This document shows positions 639 to 57,688 of a stretch of 64,000 nucleotides of DNA, piece after piece. Below the pieces are notes generated by a model, which was given only the letters and a program-made list of their open reading frames with translations, had not been told where the DNA came from and did not search any database. The stretch lies in the sequence record OP557970.1; one strand, given 5' to 3'. The stretch is from Escherichia phage ph0021. How positions within the stretch are numbered: position 1 is the stretch's first letter; every line of letters begins with the position of its first letter. Position numbers and translations under genes: made by a program.

Positions 639-3605
639 ATGGCTACTTTAAAACAAATACAATTTAAAAGAAGCAAAACTGCAGGTCAACGTCCTGCTGC
701 TTCAGTATTAGCCGAAGGTGAATTGGCTATAAACTTAAAAGATAAAACAATTTTCACAAAAGATGACTCAGGTAGTGTTATAGAATTAGGTTTAAAATAT
801 GGAGGAACAATTGATGGTTCTTTAACTGTTAATGGAAACATAATTGGAAATTTAACAGGTAACGCTGCAACTGCAACGAAATTAAAAACAGCACGAAAAA
901 TTAATGGTATATCCTTTGATGGGTCAAAAGATATCACGCTAACTCCATCTGACATAAATGTCAATAGCACAACGTTTATAAAAAATAACGGCGAATTACC
1001 TGTTGATGCTAATTTAGATGAGTATGGGCCTGTTGAAGAATATCTTGGAGTTTGGTCGAAAGCAACTTCAACCAACGCTCAACCAGCAAATAAATTTCCA
1101 GAAGAAAATGCTGTAGGTGTTCTAGAAGTATTTGTGGCCGGTCAATTTGCTGGTACTCAGAGATATACAACTAGATACGGAAATGTTTATATTCGTTCCT
1201 TGACTGCTACATGGAACGGAGTAAATGGTCCGTGGAGTGTGTGGCGAAATATTCAATCCGGTACTCGTCCACTGTCAACAACAATTGATCTTAATGATCT
1301 AGGAGGCGCTGAACACCTTGGTTTGTGGCGAAATAGTTCAAATTCCATTGCTACCTTTGACAGAAATTTCCCAGAAGAGGGGTCGTCAGCTCAAGGTCTT
1401 TTGGAAGTATCTGAAGGTGGAAACTATTCTCGTACACAAAGATATACAACCAGATTTGGAGTTGTTTATACTCGCTGTCTTACTGCTGCATGGGATGCAT
1501 CTGCGCCTAAATGGGGACCGTGGCAACAAGTCGGTAATGTCACACCGGCGACTTTCTATGATGGAGATCTGAATGATTTTAAAACTCCTGGGTTATATAA
1601 TATTTTAGGCACTGATGCCGTTATTAACTGTCCTACAGGTGAAGGTTTGCCGACTGTTATTGTTGGTTTGCTGGAAGTTAAACAGCGTGCTTCTGGCGGT
1701 GCTATTTTCCAAAAATTTACTACTGCCGGAACAGGTGCAACTACTCGCGATCGTATTTTTGAGCGTGCATATACTGGTGGTGCGTGGGGTGCATGGAACG
1801 AAGTATATACATCTTATTCTCTGCCAATTACTTTGGGTATGGGTGGTATTAAAGCTCAATTAGCGGAGTTAGATTGGCAAACCTTTGATTTTGTCCCTGG
1901 TAGTATGTTTAGTGTTCCTTTGAACAAAATAAAGAATATGCCCGCAAATATGGATTGGGGCACGATTGATGGAAACCTGGTTATGTTTTCCGTTGGTCCT
2001 AGCGAACACACTAGCACAGGACGTACTGTTCAGATTTGGCGTGGTACTGTATCCCAGACAAACTACCGTTATTTTGTCGTTCGTGTATTCGGTAATTCAG
2101 GAAATAGAACTTGCACAGTTCGTCGTGTTGTTCTTGAAGACGGATCACATACTTGGACTGCTAAACAAGATTTTAATGGCGCAGTTAACTTTAACTCTAC
2201 TGTTAACCTTAATAACACTACCACATTTAAAACAGAAGTTAAATTTCGCTCATTGAATGCATTCCGTATGTATGGCGGAAAATTTGGTACATTTTTACGT
2301 AATGATGGAGAGAGTCTTTATATTCTTTCCACCGACGAAGATGATCAAGATGGAAACTTTAATACAAATAGACCTTTCCGTTATGAATTAAGAACTGGTG
2401 ATGTTACTTTAGGTGGTATTAGTGGTGCTAACGTTTTAAAATTAAAACGTGATTCTCTCACCGCATTTTTTGGTGGTGATATTAACATGAAAGGCTTGAT
2501 GACTTTTGACGCCGGACGTTTAGGATCACGAGATTATTTTAAATTTAACCATTGGGGTGATAGTAATAATGCGCGTGATAACATTATTCAGTTAGAAGAC
2601 AGCAAAGGCGCTCATTTTTCCACTGAACGTACTTTAGCGACTGGTGCAATTAAGACTAAATTTTTTGGTGAAATTGAATCCGATGGTAAATTGGTTATTA
2701 AACGTCCGGGTGATTCTATTGTATTATCAGCACCTGCTAATAATTCTTTGCATATTCGCGGTGATATAGACGGGACTGGTAACTGGTATATTGGTAAAGG
2801 TGGTACTGATAATGGATTAGCGTTCTATAGTTATGCTACTAATGCTGGTGTATACATTACAAACGCAGGAGATATCTCGCTAAGTCCAAAGGGTGCCGAA
2901 ATGGCTCAGGTCAATAACGTTCGATTATATGTTCATGGTGAACGTTGGACCGCTAGTCAACCAGGTGATTGGGGCAGTCAGTGGCAAGTGGAAGCGCCAA
3001 TATTCGTCGATCATGGTTATGTTGGATCAGATAGCTATTATCCAATTATTAAAGGAAGAAGTGTAGTCACCAATCAAGGGTTTGTAACTGCCGTCGATCT
3101 TGGTATTCGTCGTGTCAATAACAATTGGGGACAAGCAATTATTCGTGTTGGATCTGCGGAGGCATCGCCAGCGGCTGGACACCCTAACGCGGTATTTGAA
3201 TTTCATTACGACGGTACTTTCTATTCTCCTGGTAATGGTAACTTTAACGATGTGTATATTCGTTCCGATGGTCGTCTTAAGATTAATAAAAAAGAGCTAG
3301 AAAACGGAGCACTTGAAAAAGTATGCCGACTGAAAGTTTATATTTACGATAAGGTTAAGTCTATTAAAGACCGTAGTGTTATTAAACGCGAAGTTGGTAT
3401 TATTGCTCAGGATCTTGAAAAAGAATTACCGGAAGCTGTGTCTAAAGTTGAAGTTGATGGATCTGATGTTCTGACAATTTCTAACTCCGCTGTGAATGCT
3501 CTTTTAATTAAGGCTATCCAAGAAATGAGCGAAGAAATTAAAGAATTAAAAACGCCTTTCTTCACTAAAATTGCTCGCAAAATTAGTAAATATTTTAAAT
3601 TCTAA
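639..3605 (+). CDS. 37: long tail fibre distal subunit gp37
   Basis: 988 aa ORF with SD, followed by gene 38 and holin t; internal triplicated repeat; C-terminal helical tail. Confidence 0.85.
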
Positions 3606-13962: not shown

Positions 13963-16140
13963 TTAGGCCGCAAGGGCCTTCATAGTTTTAGCGATTTGAG
14001 AAACTTCATCATCACTTAAAGAGTTGCGATAACCGATGAAGTCGGAAACAATACGGAATTTCTTGGTAAACTCAGCAACCATTTTATCACTGTTTTTTGA
14101 AGCATTATTTGACAATACATCAAAAAGATTAGTTACTGTCCAGATGTCATGACCAATGGTATCTTTTCCACCATTAAAATATACACCGCGCAATGAACTA
14201 ACTATATTAGCGAGTCGTGTATATTCTTCAGAAACTTCATCTGTACTGAAGTACTTCATCATAAAATCTAACTCAGGATACTTGATAATTTTATCAATAT
14301 ATCGTTGAGCTGAACTTGAATAACCTACGTACTTATCATAATCTACATCATCAAAAGCATCTACATATAAATCACGCAAAGCTTCAAAAATACACTGGCA
14401 CTGACCGAGTTCTTTTACCTTTTTCTGTAAAAGCGGACGAATAACATAAAATTCATTAATGCCAATAAGATTAGCCATACGAATCAAAATATTCATAGAT
14501 GGATGACAAAGAGATGTAGTACCATCCATAGAGAAAATATCAGAACGATGCATATACGCTACATAACCAGTAATTTCATCTGCTTCTGATGTGAGCGTAA
14601 ATAATTCCTCTTTTTCCCAGCGCCCGTCTTTAATTTCAAACTTAAATGCTGTAGCAGCTTTAGGACGAGGAGCTTTACTTTTAACTACCTTTGGAATATA
14701 GCTTTTAACTAAAGCTTCGATTTCTGACAAATAATGAATGTTAACTTCATCACTTTCAAACATCGCCATAATATCAGGGAGTAAATCAATCTGCGATTCT
14801 ACTTCTGGGTTAATAAACAGAAGGCGTTCGTTATGATGAATATTCAAAGTGTTATTAAATTCACTATCATCTAACGCTCGTGCTAATCCACGAACAATAT
14901 TAACACGATTTTTAATATTATCAATAACGATATTAATTTTTGTTGTATTAATACCAAACAGACGATAACTTGATGCAACGGCTGAAGTTTCATGACTTTG
15001 CTTAATGCGTTTCAGTCGAGGGTCAAGATTTACTTCATACACAACTCCTGCATTGCATAACTTACTATCAGGTTCAAACATGCTTTGCATCTTTTTATAT
15101 GACAGATTTTTAGTCGTGAATTTAACTGAATTACTAATCATATAATCTCGAGCAGAATACCCCATCTTCATCAATTCACGATATGTGTGACGAGGAGATG
15201 TGGATTCTTTAAATCGTTTTACATCTTCATTAAATGCTTTCTCACTGAGTTCTTTAACTCGTTCAATAATATTTTTACGAGTACGATCATCCAGTGAAAG
15301 AGCCTCGCGAGATGGAGCAATATCAAGTGAACCCATTGGAAACTTAATGTAATTCACTTCATTGCGAATGCTTAGCCAGTTACGGTCTCTAATAACACCA
15401 TCGATAGGATAAACAATACCGCCATAGATAGCATATAATCCACCACGATCAGGCCAGTATCTTTCTGGATTTACACCGTAATAGTCATCAAAATCCGGAA
15501 AATAATCAATTTCGCGGTCAAGACCATTAATGATAGCCAAATCTTTGAATGGTCGCATGATATAAGAAACTTCATAAGCAAAGTTTCTAAAGTCTTTTTC
15601 TTCAACTGGAACTACGATTTCAATACCAGTTTTATCATCTGGACCCATTTCTTTTACGAATGTAGGTTTAATCTGTGGACCATCACCATCCATGTAAGCT
15701 ACATAACCACGAATTTCGCCTTTATGATATGAAGTAATACTAAATGTATCAGTATAACTAAACGGAGATTTAGAACCTAAACCAAATCCACCAATGAAAT
15801 CGTTAGATTCAGCCTTAGATGAACTAAAGTATGAATTATACAACCCAGGAGAATTATCATCACCCTGAATATCAAAATCGCTCATACCTGGACCAAAATC
15901 ACGACAAACAAATCGCGGATCTAATCGTCCTGGAACTTGAATGATAAATTTTTCAGGATTTCCATTGAGAGCATGGGCATCAATCATATTGGTAATCAAT
16001 TCACGGACTACTGCGCGAATCTTGTTTGTATACAAATCAGATGACAGAATTTTAAATACTTTAGGAGATGCTGTGATGCTAAATGCTTTTGATTTAGAAC
16101 CATTGCCAAGAATTGTTTCTTTTTCAGTGGTGATAATCAT
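13963..16140 (-). CDS. rIIA: rIIA protein
   Basis: 725 aa, length matches T4 rIIA; N-terminal GHKL-ATPase-like region. Confidence 0.9.
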
Positions 16141-16150
16141 AATTTCCTCA

Positions 16151-16354
16151 TTAATTCATATTGCGTTTAATAACTTCAGCGACTTCTAGTAGTTCATCTT
16201 TAGTTGCAGTGTCAGATTGAATTTTATCTCTAATATCCTTAAAGCGGTTTTTAAACTCTTCAGCTTCTCCCATATCGAAAAAGCGTTGAATGATTCTATA
16301 TTCTCGATGAACTGCTTTATCAAAAAGTTCTAAATTTACTTTATATGATTTCAT
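16151..16354 (-). CDS. hypothetical protein (rIIA.1 position)
   Basis: 67 aa ORF between 39 and rIIA. Confidence 0.5.
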
Positions 16355-16409: not shown

Positions 16410-18229
16410 TACTGGCTCATCCATTCTTTACGAAGGTCAGCATTATCTCCCATGAGCATTTCAAAAAGCTCTTTCCAATTCTCAGGAAGTTTAACAACAT
16501 CATATACTGGGTTTTGAATCATCTCACGATATTCAGATTTTTCCAAAGAGCCAAGTCCTTTAATATAACGGATGCTATGTTTAGGTAGAGCATCTTTGGC
16601 ACTCTCATATTCAGCGACTGTATAAAACCATTCTTGTTTTTTACCAATTTGAGCGATGATTACAGGAGTTTTGACAAAACGAATTCGTCCTTGCTCAAAC
16701 AATTCTGGCCAATTACTAAAAAATCCGAGCAAAGAAGGATAAATGCTTCCTAGACCATCATGGTCGGCATCAGTCATAATAGCAATATTATGATAATTTA
16801 AGTTTTCAGCCTTTTCACCGAGAACTAATCCAGTGATTGCGCAAATATCAAATAGTTCTTTGTTTTTAAGCATATCTGCATAAGACATACCCCAACTGTT
16901 GAGAACTTTACCGCGCAATGGATAACCACCGTGAAGTTCTTTATCACGAACATCAATAAGATATCCGATAGCCGAATCACCCTCAGTTAAGAATAGTGTA
17001 GTGTCAGCATCTTTACCGCAAAGATTCGCTTTAATATGTTTATGAACCTTAGCTTTAGAAGCCTTTTTAGCTGCTTTAGTTTCTGCTGCTTTTTCTGCTG
17101 CCAATTTACGGGCCAAGGCAGCTTCAATAATCGGCATTAAAATTGCTTCATTATTTAGAATAGCGCGTGAAATCTTTTTAGCATCAAGTTGAATATGACT
17201 ACGAATTTCGCCAAATGGAGAAGTCAAACGCTCTTTAGTTTGAGAATCAAATCGCATGTTTTTCATATCACGGACAAACATAACGATAGTCAAACATTCT
17301 TTGACACGTGCTTTAGTCACATCAATTTTGAACTTACGTTTGATTTGCGGAATAAGGTCTTCACAAATATCATCCATAACACAGTCAATGTGATGGCCAC
17401 CATTCTTAGTGTGAATGTTATTGACGTATGTTAATTGACGAAAACCATCCGGTGAACGACCAACCGCAATAGAACAATTTTCTTGTTCTTGAACAATAGC
17501 ATGCTCATCATATTGGCGTGCATATTTCTTAAAATTGCCCTGAACCTTTTTACCATTAAAGGTAAATTGAATATCAGGATAAACTACTGCAAGTGTCTGG
17601 AGACGATCTAGTGTAATGTCAAGATAAACTTGAGATAGCTCATTAGTTTCAAATGACATAAAATCAGGAATGAAAGTAACACGTGTTCCTTTCCATTTTC
17701 CAGGAATATCTTCCCATGATTTATTTTCCATACCATTTGAACAACGAACTACAATATTATTTTGACCGTCGCCAGTTTCACCAACAAACATCACAGAAAA
17801 AATGTTTGTCAAACTAGAACCAACACCGTTCATACCGCCAGTGACGCGTTCTTTATCATCACCGAAGTTACCACCTGCTTTTGGAATAGTCCATGCAGCA
17901 ACAGGACCAGGAATTTCTTCACCGGTAGGTGTTTTGACCATCGCTTGTGGAATACCACGACCGTTATCTTCAACTGTTACTTGATTGTTTTTAATAGTAA
18001 CATTAATTTTATTCGCGAATTTAAACTTAGTACGAATACCTTCATCTACTGAGTTATCGATAATTTCATCAATAAGCTTAACAAGACCAGGTACATACTG
18101 AACACTTTCCCATTTACCAAACAGAAAGCGCTCATGCATTTCATTAGCAGAAGAGCCAATGTACATGCCACTACGCTTTTTGATATGTTCAATATCGCTC
18201 AGAATTTTAATTTCATTCTTAATCATCAC
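16409..18229 (-). CDS. 39: DNA topoisomerase II large subunit gp39 (GyrB-like), unsplit form
   Basis: 606 aa continuous ORF with GyrB ATPase/Toprim sequence; no gene 60 interruption. Confidence 0.9.
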   Translation of the reverse strand: MMIKNEIKILSDIEHIKKRSGMYIGSSANEMHERFLFGKWESVQYVPGLVKLIDEIIDNSVDEGIRTKFKFANKINVTIKNNQVTVEDNGRGIPQAMVKTPTGEEIPGPVAAWTIPKAGGNFGDDKERVTGGMNGVGSSLTNIFSVMFVGETGDGQNNIVVRCSNGMENKSWEDIPGKWKGTRVTFIPDFMSFETNELSQVYLDITLDRLQTLAVVYPDIQFTFNGKKVQGNFKKYARQYDEHAIVQEQENCSIAVGRSPDGFRQLTYVNNIHTKNGGHHIDCVMDDICEDLIPQIKRKFKIDVTKARVKECLTIVMFVRDMKNMRFDSQTKERLTSPFGEIRSHIQLDAKKISRAILNNEAILMPIIEAALARKLAAEKAAETKAAKKASKAKVHKHIKANLCGKDADTTLFLTEGDSAIGYLIDVRDKELHGGYPLRGKVLNSWGMSYADMLKNKELFDICAITGLVLGEKAENLNYHNIAIMTDADHDGLGSIYPSLLGFFSNWPELFEQGRIRFVKTPVIIAQIGKKQEWFYTVAEYESAKDALPKHSIRYIKGLGSLEKSEYREMIQNPVYDVVKLPENWKELFEMLMGDNADLRKEWMSQ

Positions 18230-18253
18230 TTATCCTCGTTTGGTTTCGGGAAT

Positions 18254-18283
18254 ATTATACTCCGGTAATCATAAAGCTAAAGG
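18254..18283 (-). promoter_or_regulatory. candidate middle-type promoter upstream of gene 39 (AGCTTTA box, 12 nt, TATAAT)
   Basis: Minus strand TTTAGCTTTATGATTACCGGAGTATAAT directly after terminator hairpin. Confidence 0.4.
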
Positions 18284-18294
18284 CCCGAAGGCCT
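18281..18294 (-). terminator. AGGCC-CGAA-GGCCT hairpin
   Basis: Perfect 5 bp stem immediately after stop of upstream ORF. Confidence 0.5.
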
Positions 18295-18295
18295 T

Positions 18296-18556
18296 TTATT
18301 TAAAACGAATAGTTGAATCCTTAAAGAACAGTCCAGAACATACTGTTCCTTCTACTTTCTGCCCAGTAGGTCCAATAGCACGAAATCCAGTATGTTGGAA
18401 ATCATTTTCAGAGCAACCGAACCAGTTATATCCAGTGATTTCAATATTAGTAAAACCGCTTGAAGACAAAACTTTGGTTGCATTATCAGCATCAGTACAT
18501 CCTACTAAAGACACTACTAATACTAATGCTGCAATAGAACGATTAATATATTTCAT
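18296..18556 (-). CDS. putative lipoprotein (39.1 position)
   Basis: 86 aa, signal peptide with lipobox LVGC. Confidence 0.55.
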   Translation of the reverse strand: MKYINRSIAALVLVVSLVGCTDADNATKVLSSSGFTNIEITGYNWFGCSENDFQHTGFRAIGPTGQKVEGTVCSGLFFKDSTIRFK

Positions 18557-18559
18557 AAT

Positions 18560-18736
18560 TACCCTTTAAGCAAGTCGTAAAATCCGCCATTCACATGCTT
18601 AGGAGCGGAAACTAACCGAATAGCAATCCGATGACAATCAGGACATACATCAGTATCCCTTTCAGAAATTTTCTTGATTTTTTCATATTCATGTCCGCAA
18701 TCTTCGGATTGGCATTTATAATCATACATTGGCATA
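18560..18736 (-). CDS. small zinc-ribbon protein (58 aa)
   Basis: CxxC...CxxC pattern (MPMYDYKCQSEDCGHEYE...CPDCH); read by hand. Confidence 0.45.
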
Positions 18737-18737
18737 A

Positions 18738-19157
18738 TTATTCCTTAAAGTGTGCTTTCAACATCTGATACAAGGACCATGCTTGTTCATTATTTTCAAT
18801 AATAACTTTCATGATCGGGAATTCTGTGAAATCTTCTATTTGTTCTTGCTCTTCCTGCTCTTGTTCTTCAGCTGCCTGATATGGATTTTCCACTTCATTA
18901 AAGAACTCAGCTTCGCTCGTTGAAAGCCAAATAAAATCTTCATCCAAAATATCTTTACCGGAGGATAACGCCAATCTTCCAGTAGATGTCACAATTTTAG
19001 TAGGACGACCAAGATGGTCAATATCTATAACTTTAAAAGGTTCCATACCTAAACGCCGCGCATAGATTCCGTTATCAGTATGGTCTTTAATAAAATTTTC
19101 TTGAGCTTGTTTATTTTTAAATTGATACCATTTATTAACTTCGAATTTAATAGCCAT
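18738..19157 (-). CDS. hypothetical protein (goF position)
   Basis: 139 aa, acidic EQEQEEQEQ tract. Confidence 0.5.
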
Positions 19158-19375
19158 TAATAAATTTCCTTCCAGTAAGTTGTGCCATCTTCAGTAATTT
19201 CACGAAATACACCGTAAATTGGTTGTTTATCCCCAACCTTTTCATACACATAAACCGAAGTCAAGTGAGTAAACTTAGCAGTGTGTTCCTTTTGAACTAC
19301 TACCAAATCTGGATCGAATAATACATCTTCAAATTCATCATTAGTGCAATTCTGAACAATTTTACGTTTCATCAT
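19157..19375 (-). CDS. hypothetical protein (cef position)
   Basis: 72 aa ORF. Confidence 0.5.
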
Positions 19376-19473
19376 AATTTCCTCATTAATTGAACATTGG
19401 AGCGATGCGTTTCAGAAGAGTATCAGCGCACCTTTAACGAATTATCCATTTTATTCTTCAAGTTGTTTTCTGT

Positions 19474-19516
19474 ATCAGTAGTTGATATTGATATAGTACC
19501 ATAATCAACTACTGAT
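19474..19516 (-). promoter_or_regulatory. promoter-like -10/leader element flanked by 13 bp perfect inverted repeat
   Basis: ATCAGTAGTTGAT ... ATCAACTACTGAT arms around TACTAT; no GTTTAC -35. Confidence 0.4.
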
Positions 19517-19546
19517 GTATATAGTTTTATGAAAAAATTTTAAACT

Positions 19547-20038
19547 TTATGCATAGCGAGCTTTGCTGTAGTGTTTAATCCAACTTTCAGGAATGACTTT
19601 GTATGTTCCTAAAAATACCGCGTTGTATAACTTAACGCCATCTTCTACCCATTGATCAGTAATGTATGCACACATAGCGCGAGTACGCTGAGGAAGTGGT
19701 TGTCCACCTTCGGTAAATTCAAACTCATAAGGAGCAATGAACTTGATAGCTTGACCAAGTTTCCACTTAAAGTCTACACCTACATGCGAAGTATCAATCG
19801 TTTCAATTCCTTTAGCAGGAACAGCTTTCAAAAACGCAGGCTCAAGAAATTTCCATCGAACATAACCAAACTGGGGCTTAGACATTCCATCTTTAGCAAT
19901 GATACGTACTTTTACTTCAGAATCTTCATCTTTAACACCGTGTTTAAGCTGAATGCTTACAACTTCGACCAATTTTCCTGCTGCTTTAGAACGGGATTTA
20001 TCAGATACACGAGCAATTTCACCGATATTAATATTCAT
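19547..20038 (-). CDS. MotB-like protein
   Basis: 163 aa at T4 motB position; paralog of adjacent 182 aa ORF. Confidence 0.5.
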   Translation of the reverse strand: MNINIGEIARVSDKSRSKAAGKLVEVVSIQLKHGVKDEDSEVKVRIIAKDGMSKPQFGYVRWKFLEPAFLKAVPAKGIETIDTSHVGVDFKWKLGQAIKFIAPYEFEFTEGGQPLPQRTRAMCAYITDQWVEDGVKLYNAVFLGTYKVIPESWIKHYSKARYA

Positions 20039-20082
20039 AATTATCTCTCACTTGTTAAAAAGATTTTATACTCCACAGGACC

Positions 20083-20112
20083 ATTATACTCTGGTCCCAA
20101 GAGTTTGTAAAC
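20083..20112 (-). promoter_or_regulatory. T4 early-type promoter (GTTTAC / TATAAT)
   Basis: GTTTAC-18nt-TATAAT upstream of motB-like gene. Confidence 0.65.
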
Positions 20113-20660
20113 TAGCTTACACGAACATTAATCACTGCGCTACGAGGAACTACAGAGTATTCTCCAGCATGAACTACGTTCAGAAGTTCAACACCATCTT
20201 CAATCCACTGGTCTGTTACCCAACCACAGATAGGATTATCAAAAGGACGACGGATAGACACAGCAGCACACAACAAGTCTGTAGGGTCTTGTTCTTCAAC
20301 TTCTTGGAACAGGATGAACTCATCTTCATAAACCAGGTTTTTCTTTATTTTGTTATTATCTAACCGGCGACCGTGGATGACGTAAGATTTGTCAAACCAC
20401 TCACTTTTGGCAAATTCTTCAACAATAAATTCGCCTTCGCCAAAAACATCAGTCAGAGTTTTATGACCAGAAATCAAGGCATTAGTTTTAATTTTAGGTT
20501 CAACCAGTTTGTAGGTTTTGCCGATTTCAATAGCGGTAGTCATAGTAGTTTCCTTAATTTCCAGTGGTTTAACAGGGCATACATAAGTGCTTACAACATC
20601 AAAATCAATCAGTTTAGCTACTGGATTTGGTGTGTATTCAGGATTATAATTAAATTTCAT
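20112..20660 (-). CDS. hypothetical protein, paralog of MotB-like protein
   Basis: 182 aa; C-terminal VTDQWIEDGVELLNVVHAGEYSVVP aligns with ITDQWVEDGVKLYNAVFLGTYKVIP in neighbour. Confidence 0.55.
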   Translation of the reverse strand: MKFNYNPEYTPNPVAKLIDFDVVSTYVCPVKPLEIKETTMTTAIEIGKTYKLVEPKIKTNALISGHKTLTDVFGEGEFIVEEFAKSEWFDKSYVIHGRRLDNNKIKKNLVYEDEFILFQEVEEQDPTDLLCAAVSIRRPFDNPICGWVTDQWIEDGVELLNVVHAGEYSVVPRSAVINVRVS

Positions 20661-20662
20661 AA

Positions 20663-21163
20663 TTATCTCATTTCAATAAAATCTACGAGTTCAGCATGGG
20701 ATTTACGGAACATTACTTGATGTCCACCAATGATAACTTCATCTTCAGGAACTTCATATACAGCGAGATAAAATCCTTTAGAAGCTAATTCTTCACGCTC
20801 TTCTCGTGTGAACCATCTCATCATATCATATTCACTAGCGAAAGCAAAATGATAAAGACCTATAAACCATCCGGGAATATGATATTCTACTCCAACATAA
20901 TCTTTCTTGAACTTAGTATTAATTACTATATTAGCGTTTTTAACTAATAGTTTATCTTCGTGCGGTAAAGGAATTCTTTTATTATTATCGCTATGATGCA
21001 TAAAATTAGGTCTGTCATAACCTACGTGTAATAGCCACTCTTCGCTCCATGAATCTATTATACTCCTGTACGGCGTTATTTGAACACAAAGATTTCGACG
21101 TATTGTTATAGCATCTTCATAATCAAGAATACTAAACGATGATTCAACACGATAAATTTTCAT
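20663..21163 (-). CDS. hypothetical protein
   Basis: 166 aa ORF. Confidence 0.55.
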   Translation of the reverse strand: MKIYRVESSFSILDYEDAITIRRNLCVQITPYRSIIDSWSEEWLLHVGYDRPNFMHHSDNNKRIPLPHEDKLLVKNANIVINTKFKKDYVGVEYHIPGWFIGLYHFAFASEYDMMRWFTREEREELASKGFYLAVYEVPEDEVIIGGHQVMFRKSHAELVDFIEMR

Positions 21164-28262: not shown

Positions 28263-28468
28263 TACAAAAAGCCTCTCTTGAATTCGACTTGCTTTTCACC
28301 ATAATCATATCGAATCTCTGCATTAAATTCGACAGAACCATCTGCGTACATCATAAATGAATGCACAATAACTTCTGTAGACCATGGCTGTAATTCATAT
28401 TTCTTCATTACATGTCGTGAAATGATAATATCTAAATCTTCATTCGGTTTAATCCAACGATTTAACAT
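28262..28468 (-). CDS. hypothetical protein
   Basis: 68 aa. Confidence 0.45.
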   Translation of the reverse strand: MLNRWIKPNEDLDIIISRHVMKKYELQPWSTEVIVHSFMMYADGSVEFNAEIRYDYGEKQVEFKRGFL

Positions 28469-28539
28469 AGTGCTCTCCTCTATAAGATAATTCTATTATA
28501 CCATACTCATTTTGATATGTAAACCATTTAAATGAAAAA

Positions 28540-28557
28540 GGACTCCCGAAGGAGTCC
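28540..28557 (-). terminator. intrinsic terminator after soc
   Basis: GGACTCC-CGAA-GGAGTCC 7 bp stem, U-run follows on minus strand. Confidence 0.55.
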
Positions 28558-28563
28558 TTGAAT

Positions 28564-28807
28564 TTATTCACCAGTTACTTTCCACAAATCTTCATTTGCA
28601 GCAATCCATTCAGTACGTTGATTTTCTTCATATACTGTAGAATATGCTGCTTTTTCTGAAGGGAACGTCTGGTAATGAGCACCAGAAATTTTGTGAACAT
28701 CAGAATAAAGAGGGAAAGCTACAGAAATTTCTTTACCCTGAATTGTTACCACCATCAACTGCTTGGTCAAATGTTTTAATATTAACATAACCGCGAGTAC
28801 TAGCCAT
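28564..28807 (-). pseudogene. soc: small outer capsid protein Soc, reading frame disrupted
   Basis: ATG after SD gives MASTRGYVNIKTFDQAVDGGNNSG then stop; conserved GKEISVAFPLY...WKVTGE continues in another frame. Confidence 0.6.
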
Positions 28808-28823
28808 GTAATTCTCCTTTTAT

Positions 28824-29033
28824 TTAAATTACATGATTATTTATAATAAATTCTCGCGGAACGTTAAAATACCCGATTTTAGTTAATATAACAACATCAC
28901 CGTTAATAATTACCGGAGAATAATCTTCTGGAGCATTAAATTTCCAATGGGCTCTAATATTATATCCATCAGAACCAAATGCTCGAGTAGCCGGTCTCCC
29001 GGCTTTTTGCCACGCGTAGAAATCAAATTTCAT
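28824..29033 (-). CDS. hypothetical protein
   Basis: 69 aa ORF between 56 and soc. Confidence 0.45.
   Translation of the reverse strand: MKFDFYAWQKAGRPATRAFGSDGYNIRAHWKFNAPEDYSPVIINGDVVILTKIGYFNVPREFIINNHVI
28838..28845 (-). promoter_or_regulatory. late promoter TATAAATA
   Basis: Exact TATAAATA on minus strand about 30 nt upstream of soc ATG. Confidence 0.6.
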
Positions 29034-29224
29034 TTTGAATGCTCTATAATTAATTTTAAAGCTTCTTCACTGACAAAAATTTCGTCAGGACCTTCTATAA
29101 CTTCAACCGTACGAAGTTGATTAGTTAAGAGCTCACATACGAGCTCCTTGTTATAATCTTTAAATAGTTGGTCAATACGTTTCTTATGGGCTTTCTTAAG
29201 CTGACGCTTATTTAAACGAGCCAT
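29030..29224 (-). CDS. hypothetical protein
   Basis: 64 aa, basic. Confidence 0.45.
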   Translation of the reverse strand: MARLNKRQLKKAHKKRIDQLFKDYNKELVCELLTNQLRTVEVIEGPDEIFVSEEALKLIIEHSK

Positions 29225-29742
29225 TAATAACCTCGGTCTTGACGGGCGAAATTTTCGGCATTTTTCAGATAATAAAGTTTAAAGATTTCTTCTGCTGTAA
29301 GACCAAGACCCTGGAACATATTCAGAACGAAATGAAGAATATCAATCATTTCAAATTTAATTTCTAACTGGTCTTGTGGAGACAAATCAGTAATCAGAGT
29401 TTCACGACGTTCACCATGCTGCGACTTCCAAGGTTTCCATACAGCAGATGCGTCTTTTTCACCATTACTCATACCACCAAGAGAAGTCAGAAGTTCACGG
29501 AATTCATCATCAATATAATCTTTCTGATTGCGTAGCCAATCAACAACTTCACCGGCAGTAGCCAAGTCATCAGGATGACGATTATATTCAGGTTTATCTT
29601 TAGCTAAACGAACCTGTAAAGATTTCTGCATGTCAAGCATTACCTGTAGCGGGTCTTTTTCATCACCGAGAATATCCCAATACTCATTTTGAGCTTTATC
29701 AGCGCCTTCGATCAGTTGACTACATTCGTTGAAATGTGGCAT
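29224..29742 (-). CDS. 56: dCTPase/dUTPase gp56 (MazG-like)
   Basis: 172 aa, matches T4 gp56 length and order. Confidence 0.85.
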   Translation of the reverse strand: MPHFNECSQLIEGADKAQNEYWDILGDEKDPLQVMLDMQKSLQVRLAKDKPEYNRHPDDLATAGEVVDWLRNQKDYIDDEFRELLTSLGGMSNGEKDASAVWKPWKSQHGERRETLITDLSPQDQLEIKFEMIDILHFVLNMFQGLGLTAEEIFKLYYLKNAENFARQDRGY

Positions 29743-29743
29743 G

Positions 29744-30394
29744 TTATTTTTCCTTTCTTATGAAGTTTTCTATCATATGTCTATAGCAGATATTAGGATA
29801 ACCTGCCTTGACAGCTATTTTATTAAATTTTGTGCGCTTAGGTCTATTATTATAAACCCATAATTCATAAAGCGCATCATAACTATTCCATATTTCTCCT
29901 CGCCTAGGATTTGGTAAACCATATCGAGGTGAATTTTTACCGCTAAATCTTCCTTTTCGGGCTTTACTCATATTAGCCTTGGCTTCATCGGATATAATTT
30001 TACCTTTATGAGCTAGACGCATTTTGGCTTTAGTTTCTTCTGGGGTCTTTTTGCCTTTAATCCATGACGGCTTGCCATATCTAGGATTATTTTCACCCGA
30101 GAAAAGAACAGAGTTTTGGATTTTAAGGGTTTCTATTAATCTACTTGTTAATTTAACACCTTTATTATATCGCATTAAATTTACAGCATAATGCAATCCT
30201 CTCACATCTGGATATATTTTAGTTAATAATCTATGAGCTATAAAATGCTCACGCGCAGTTAACTCAACAAGATTGTTTTTGTCATCTGCTCCTCCTATAC
30301 ATCTAGGAATTATATGATGACGTTCTTTATATCCGCCAAGATGCCGGCATTTAGCTTTTGTAATTAAAGCCGAGTAAATTTTTTGGTAATTCAC
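29744..30394 (-). CDS. HNH homing endonuclease with NUMOD3-like repeats
   Basis: 216 aa; HHIIPRCIGG...NLVELTAREHFIAH HNH motif; two GxNxPRYG / KxKMxxAxKG repeats; GTG start after SD AAAGGA. Confidence 0.75.
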   Translation of the reverse strand: MNYQKIYSALITKAKCRHLGGYKERHHIIPRCIGGADDKNNLVELTAREHFIAHRLLTKIYPDVRGLHYAVNLMRYNKGVKLTSRLIETLKIQNSVLFSGENNPRYGKPSWIKGKKTPEETKAKMRLAHKGKIISDEAKANMSKARKGRFSGKNSPRYGLPNPRRGEIWNSYDALYELWVYNNRPKRTKFNKIAVKAGYPNICYRHMIENFIRKEK

Positions 30395-57177: not shown

Positions 57178-57472
57178 GTCCCATCTCCATATCAATTAAG
57201 TCATTTATTGTAGGTTCATTATATACTGTTTCTTCATCAGTGTAAACCGGTTCTTCCGGCTCTGGCTCTACAGTTTCCCATCTAGCCGCCCACCAAGGTT
57301 TAACCCCGAAGCTTATTAAGTTCTTCATAATCAATCCAGGATTCTAATCCTGATGGCAAATCAGATTCAATTTCCCAAAGAAGTTCTTCAATTTTCTGAA
57401 GACGATCTAGTTCTTCGGCTGGAATAGTAACCATTGACGGAGTTCTTGATACACTAATATCGTAAATCATAT

Positions 57473-57688
57473 TTACCCCAATTTAACCATACAATCGCCG
57501 TATTTCCACTTAGAAATAGACTTTTCACCATTAGAATAATAAACTTCGAGTTTAGCACGATTATTTTTAATTTGAATAACCTTGGCTGTCATCAAAGTTC
57601 CATACCCATAATAAACTGCAACTTCATCACCTACATATACCGCGCTTCCGCGGTAATCATGAATATAGTCAGTTCCTTCGAGCATCAT
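57473..57688 (-). CDS. hypothetical protein
   Basis: 71 aa. Confidence 0.45.
   Translation of the reverse strand: MMLEGTDYIHDYRGSAVYVGDEVAVYYGYGTLMTAKVIQIKNNRAKLEVYYSNGEKSISKWKYGDCMVKLG

Follow-up and report, generated by a model that had tools for sequence, protein, structure and literature searches.

A one-base insertion splits soc between two reading frames in the deposited genome of a T4-like phage

Soc, a protein of 9 kDa, attaches in trimeric form between gp23* hexamers, and about 870 copies of it form a cage around the expanded head. Laboratory soc null mutants of T4 were reportedly described by Ishii and Yanagida in 1977. The phage can do without it: growth of null mutants is normal, although the cage of 870 Soc copies is missing from their heads and fewer of them survive pH 10.6 or high temperature (PMC3012670; PMC10580926; PMC9546572). 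The Soc fold is a beta-tadpole whose tail, a hairpin into which strands 1 and 2 extend, serves for trimerisation; strand 1 contributes both to the three-stranded head sheet and to the hairpin tail, of which it makes up half (PMC7602432). Here we report a soc gene in which this domain is divided between two frames by a single base.

The gene lies in a 64,000-nucleotide stretch of DNA, referred to below as the window, which is 100% identical to GenBank record OR584013.1 (the T4-like "Pseudomonas phage PsgM02F", Tequatrovirus) over 401 nt and over 24.5 kb. The soc locus occupies positions 28564-28807 of the minus strand, on which all soc features named below also lie, and measures 244 nt. The original prediction held that a strongly preceded ATG opens a frame that soon meets a stop, while the rest of Soc continues in a different frame, and both parts of it were confirmed. 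A Shine-Dalgarno sequence, AAGGAG (28814-28819), stands 6 nt 5' of the ATG at 28807 and is invariant in the soc alignment. Translation from this ATG gives MASTRGYVNIKTFDQAVDGGNNSG followed by a stop. This 5' fragment of 24 codons plus TAA (28733-28807) encodes Soc residues 1-20 (MASTRGYVNIKTFDQAVDGG) and then the out-of-frame residues NNSG, and it closes at a premature TAA (28735-28733), which the frameshift has brought into frame (context: UCA GGG UAA A). The frame one nucleotide away reads ...TIQGKEISVAFPLYSDVHKISGAHYQTFPSEKAAYSTVYEENQRTEWIAANEDLWKVTGE as far as its own stop at 28566-28564, and contains the 3' part of soc at 28564-28746: 60 codons (TIQGKEISV...WKVTGE) plus TAA, whose DNA is 100% identical to that of the intact soc gene of Escherichia phage JoYop. 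The codon for Q lies at 28765-28763 and the GGT of GKE at 28737-28735; counting the bases between them yielded 25 nt, the number first reported.

Comparison with the Soc family gave the same division. Positions 1-15 of the Pfam profile PF16855 matched the first frame (19 bits) and positions 17-74 matched the second (139.3 bits, against a cutoff of 27). When one A was deleted, the two matches merged into a continuous match to positions 1-74 scoring 162 bits. The locus also matched PHROG 1715 (E = 4e-33) and the Soc chains of the PDB (E = 4e-45). The Soc profile is thus present above its curated threshold, but the single uninterrupted ORF expected of a functional soc gene is not, since codon 24 is followed by a TAA and the domain is shared out between the frames. 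The frame break affects a recognisable and highly conserved gene and is no chance pattern; the locus belongs to the Soc family but is disrupted, a pseudogene or null allele.

The lesion could be placed at one base. The next-best match to the soc segment after PsgM02F was JoYop (OR769032.1, 99.7%), which has an intact 243-nt soc gene encoding MASTRGYVNIKTFDQAVDGGTIQGKEISV.... The sole difference between the two at soc is GGTGGTACAATT in JoYop against GGTGGTAACAATT in the window, at 28746/28747. Here the window has an AA doublet (28746-28747), one A of which is the inserted base, and the intact allele has a single A (GGT GGT ACA ATT); written out, the site reads GGTAACAAT with the additional A and GGTACAAT with a single A. 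The lesion is therefore a +1 insertion in codon 21, formally a duplication of one A.

Among the soc genes in GenBank, two forms were found. The T4-type, with the variable segment EQKLDGNKKIE, occurs in approximately 178 records, and the T2-type, with DQAVDGGTIQ and one codon shorter, in approximately 71 records, including those of T2, RB27, RB32, RB33, RB51 and RB68. The window carries the T2-type allele. An alternative N-terminus encoded in the shifted frame by close relatives would have counted against a broken gene; what the relatives with DQAVDGGTIQ have is a gene one base shorter and in frame. This was the case for all of the T2-type records whose match length was visible (55 records; 39/39 of those listed and 16/16 of those sampled). 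Of the 249 phage records that matched the segment, PsgM02F alone did so without any difference. As judged from these database records, the frameshift is confined to PsgM02F and shows no conservation. A 30-mer spanning the +A form and the corresponding 30-mer of the intact T2-type were both absent from IMG/VR, which was searched with each 30-mer, and from the JGI metagenomes and GTDB genomes, which were searched with one pattern covering both alleles.

The signals around the gene are intact. A T4-type late promoter motif, TATAAATA (28838-28845), lies 30 nt upstream of the soc ATG and corresponds to the T4 late-promoter consensus. No second copy occurs in the 64 kb of the window, where shuffling leads to an expectation of 10.6 +/- 2.9, and the motif seems to be strongly avoided in this region of mostly early and middle genes. 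After soc comes an intrinsic terminator (28531-28559) with a 9-bp stem, AAGGACTCC-TTCG-GGAGTCCTT, followed by a T-run; the corresponding feature in phage G29 is annotated as a terminator. The location of soc, with its own promoter and terminator, is the one conserved among T-even phages: gene 56 and two small soc-proximal ORFs lie upstream of it and the mrh region lies downstream, and the gene order around it matches that of JoYop, FriedrichMiescher and G29. Its upstream neighbour is a DUF7422 (PHROG 5773) gene.

Two further features of the neighbourhood were observed. First, an ORF for a 216-aa HNH/NUMOD3 homing endonuclease (29744-30394, minus strand; PHROG 655, E = 1e-59) adjoins gene 56, which encodes dCTPase (29224-29742). 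JoYop lacks it at that place, which in G29 is taken by a methylase gene; the ORF is a mobile insertion approximately 1 kb from soc. Second, in a global alignment of 3.2 kb, the extra A was the only difference from JoYop within 28491-28898 (408 nt), and the flanks on either side had approximately 5 differences per 100 nt. A 408-nt patch that departs from JoYop by the extra A alone, set inside flanks diverged by approximately 5%, indicates that the soc cassette was recently exchanged by recombination.

A broken soc, whether by an inactivating indel or by an assembly error, had been proposed from the frames; the comparison supports it, in that the gene is soc and differs by a 1-nt insertion from an otherwise identical intact allele. 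As for the choice between the two causes, we consider it likely that the insertion is a true mutation of very recent date, carried by all or most of the sequenced stock, which produced a soc-null phage; that the base is present in the phage DNA is what we infer from the deposited consensus. The gene shows no secondary decay, its 60 downstream codons being identical in DNA to those of JoYop, and on this ground the insertion is dated as very recent.

The strongest competing explanation is that the extra A is an artefact of sequencing, assembly or polishing in the deposited consensus, and that the phage itself has an intact T2-type soc. We regard this as unlikely, though some observations agree with it: the insertion is found in one record only, and the gene is otherwise identical to the intact allele with all of its signals in place, an absence of decay that fits an artefact equally well. 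Against it stands the very low indel error of Illumina chemistry. The site is also atypical for an error of Illumina, SPAdes or Pilon, as the change from A to AA makes a dinucleotide and involves no homopolymer run. Moreover, the gene affected is one whose loss is tolerated, and there is no further frame break in about 100 genes of the window. A mixed sample might also have yielded a chimera of the two soc alleles, T2-type and T4-type; this source of the frameshift was rejected, both sides of the extra A being purely T2-type with no T4-type bases.

The record's own history bears on the artefact from both directions. OR584013.1 was produced from Illumina reads of Nextera libraries with Shovill, which runs SPAdes and then corrects with BWA and Pilon, and its stated mean coverage of 171,636x was subsampled to approximately 250x (PMC10815195); a consensus polished by Pilon at that depth argues against a spurious base. 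On the other side, the sample that yielded the contig had its viral contigs sorted by genus, and 8% of the reads were unmapped (PMC10815195), which leaves more room for an artefact. Neither frameshifts nor Soc nor virion proteins are mentioned in the source paper (PMC10815195).

Since JoYop is only approximately 95% identical to the window outside soc, indels were audited at the protein level by tblastn, in place of a genome-wide DNA reference. Of 117 JoYop ORFs, approximately 105 matched in the window, and soc was the only gene whose frame was broken in the window. The genes for polymerase, helicase, rIIA/B and topoisomerase are of full length. A second frame-split gene that emerged from the audit, at 57457-57688 of the minus strand, proved to have a clean frame of 71 aa in the window, so that it gave no evidence of an indel error there. 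In JoYop (OR769032.1, 119259-119492) the frame of this gene changes after codon 40, at a run of A4 against A5, the JoYop run being the shorter; this suggests that it is the JoYop record, not the window, that has a frameshift or homopolymer error. The audit also brought out a divergence of another kind in the distal long-tail-fibre gene, gp37 (988 aa; window approximately 640-3600, plus strand; OR584013.1 132883-135849), which matches the 1321-aa gp37 of JoYop at its two ends only. Outside the window, hoc (15115-16248 of OR584013.1, 1134 nt) is intact and of the expected length, so that soc is the only head decoration gene affected. The capsid genes gp24 (1284 nt) and gp23 (1566 nt), within 17861-20793 of the same record, are likewise intact and of the expected lengths.

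Compared with the original prediction, this analysis pins the lesion to one base. It also moves the balance towards a real mutation, because the genome was sequenced by Illumina and polished with Pilon, the site is not a homopolymer, and no second gene in the window is broken.

If the insertion is real, translation from the normal strong start would end after 24 codons, with 20 native residues followed by NNSG. The remaining 60 codons would be out of frame, and no full-length Soc would be made. In terms of the fold, the break falls at the tip of the hairpin between strands 1 and 2, where the variable segment (EQKLDGNKKIE or DQAVDGGTIQ) is located, and the 24-residue product corresponds to strand 1 alone. 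The heads of the phage very probably lack Soc. The virions would be normal and infectious, with heads decorated by Hoc but devoid of Soc, and would be less resistant to alkaline pH and heat. Both the absence of useful Soc and the stability phenotype are predictions from sequence.

A real insertion might nevertheless be compatible with a shortened Soc that still binds the capsid. In this explanation, an internal start or reinitiation at 28758-28750 would give the 63-aa product annotated in GenBank; we hold it to be improbable. It had been suggested earlier that an internal ATG could give a truncated product, and starts in the right frame do exist. A TTG-ATG-GTG cluster (28750-28758) lies in the downstream frame, and the 63-aa CDS of OR584013.1 (107733-107924) begins at its ATG, at 28755. 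A further ATG (28786-28788) opens a 74-aa ORF (MLILKHLTKQLMVVTIQGKE...). The geometry fits termination-reinitiation, as the starts of the cluster are near the stop of a well-translated short ORF, approximately 20 nt upstream of it, and the product would retain PF16855 positions 17-74. That a useful product results is doubtful, for the ribosome-binding sites are poor and the product would be without beta-strand 1. Neither internal ATG has an adequate Shine-Dalgarno sequence: the cluster is preceded by only AAGCAG, 3 nt away, and the ATG of the 74-aa ORF has none. The shortened protein would lose residues 1-17, including the strand GYVNIKTF, which is invariant between the T2-type and T4-type and conserved in RB69 Soc; with it would go the head-sheet strand and half of the trimerisation hairpin (PMC7602432). 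Neither of the exact 63-aa and 74-aa products has a record elsewhere in public assemblies. Because strand 1 is lost and no adequate Shine-Dalgarno sequence is present, functional rescue by internal initiation or reinitiation is unlikely.

The general case, that the frameshifted gene is not null and that either a +1 slip or termination-reinitiation yields a capsid-binding variant of Soc, would concern a newly arisen and unselected site in a natural isolate, and we find it hard to credit. Least probable of all is the slip itself. It would occur at UCA GGG UAA A, where with the stop in the A site the P-site Gly-tRNA would move from GGG to GGU, to give a full-length Soc of 80 aa in which NNS replaces TIQ. 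A forward move of one nucleotide exactly at the stop does give ...DGGNNSGKEISV... and a protein of normal length, re-pairing from GGG to GGU could take place at two of three positions, and a G-rich P-site codon followed by a stop resembles the core of the prfB site. On the other hand, GGG is preceded by the 9 nt AACAAUUCA, so that 9 nt separate it from the closest G-rich element, GGUGGU, and there is no Shine-Dalgarno-like stimulator at the prfB spacing of approximately 3 nt. No unusual RNA structure was found at the shift site (z = -0.38), and the site is unconserved, none of the 249 matching records apart from PsgM02F being identical. Unstimulated slippage would presumably fall far short of the 870 copies that each head takes up.

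The preferred reading, a recent null mutation, is an ordinary inactivation of a dispensable gene and raises no new biological question; its main value lies in curation. The CDS in GenBank is a fragment of soc: OR584013.1 labels the 63-aa fragment (28564-28755, minus strand) "virion structural protein", and the disruption of soc is not flagged. A 40-aa CDS in the same record, at 28449-28571 of the minus strand, runs across the soc terminator and is probably spurious. If the reading is true, PsgM02F is a naturally Soc-less T4-like phage. This would matter in practice, as the phage has been proposed for biocontrol on coffee leaves, where the robustness of the capsid to heat, pH and desiccation counts, and T4 without Soc is known to tolerate high pH and high temperature far less well. 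Work on Soc display or complementation would also gain a T2-type lineage that is already soc-minus. As to its host, the reported isolation strain of PsgM02F is Pseudomonas syringae pv. garcae, and its efficiency of plating on E. coli ATCC 25922 is given as 0.11% (PMC10815195); a Pseudomonas host is an unusual claim for a Tequatrovirus.

We compared the locus with four described systems. The intact T2-type allele of JoYop shares with the window the promoter, the Shine-Dalgarno sequence, all 80 codons, the terminator and the DQAVDGGTIQ variant; in contrast to JoYop, the window has an extra A after codon 20, which turns an ORF of 80 codons into one of 24 codons and leaves 60 codons out of frame. 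When repaired, the protein aligns end to end with the structures of T4 Soc and RB69 Soc (5VF3, 7VS5, 9MKB, 3IG9 and 3IGE; E = 4e-45 and 1.6e-17, respectively), whereas the polypeptides encoded here are fragments. The +1 frameshift of prfB (RF2) likewise has a stop in the A site right after a codon that might let the P-site tRNA re-pair one base forward, but the soc site has neither conservation nor a correctly spaced Shine-Dalgarno stimulator, and the likeness is one of resemblance only. The laboratory soc nulls of T4 (amber, nonsense and deletion mutants; T4 delta-Soc, PMC10580926) likewise combine an early loss of function with a dispensable decoration gene. The present case differs from them in being a spontaneous +1 frameshift in the T2-type allele of an environmental isolate, known from its sequence alone. 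The laboratory nulls are viable, but alkali and heat damage their heads, which have no cage of Soc, and the same phenotype would be expected here.
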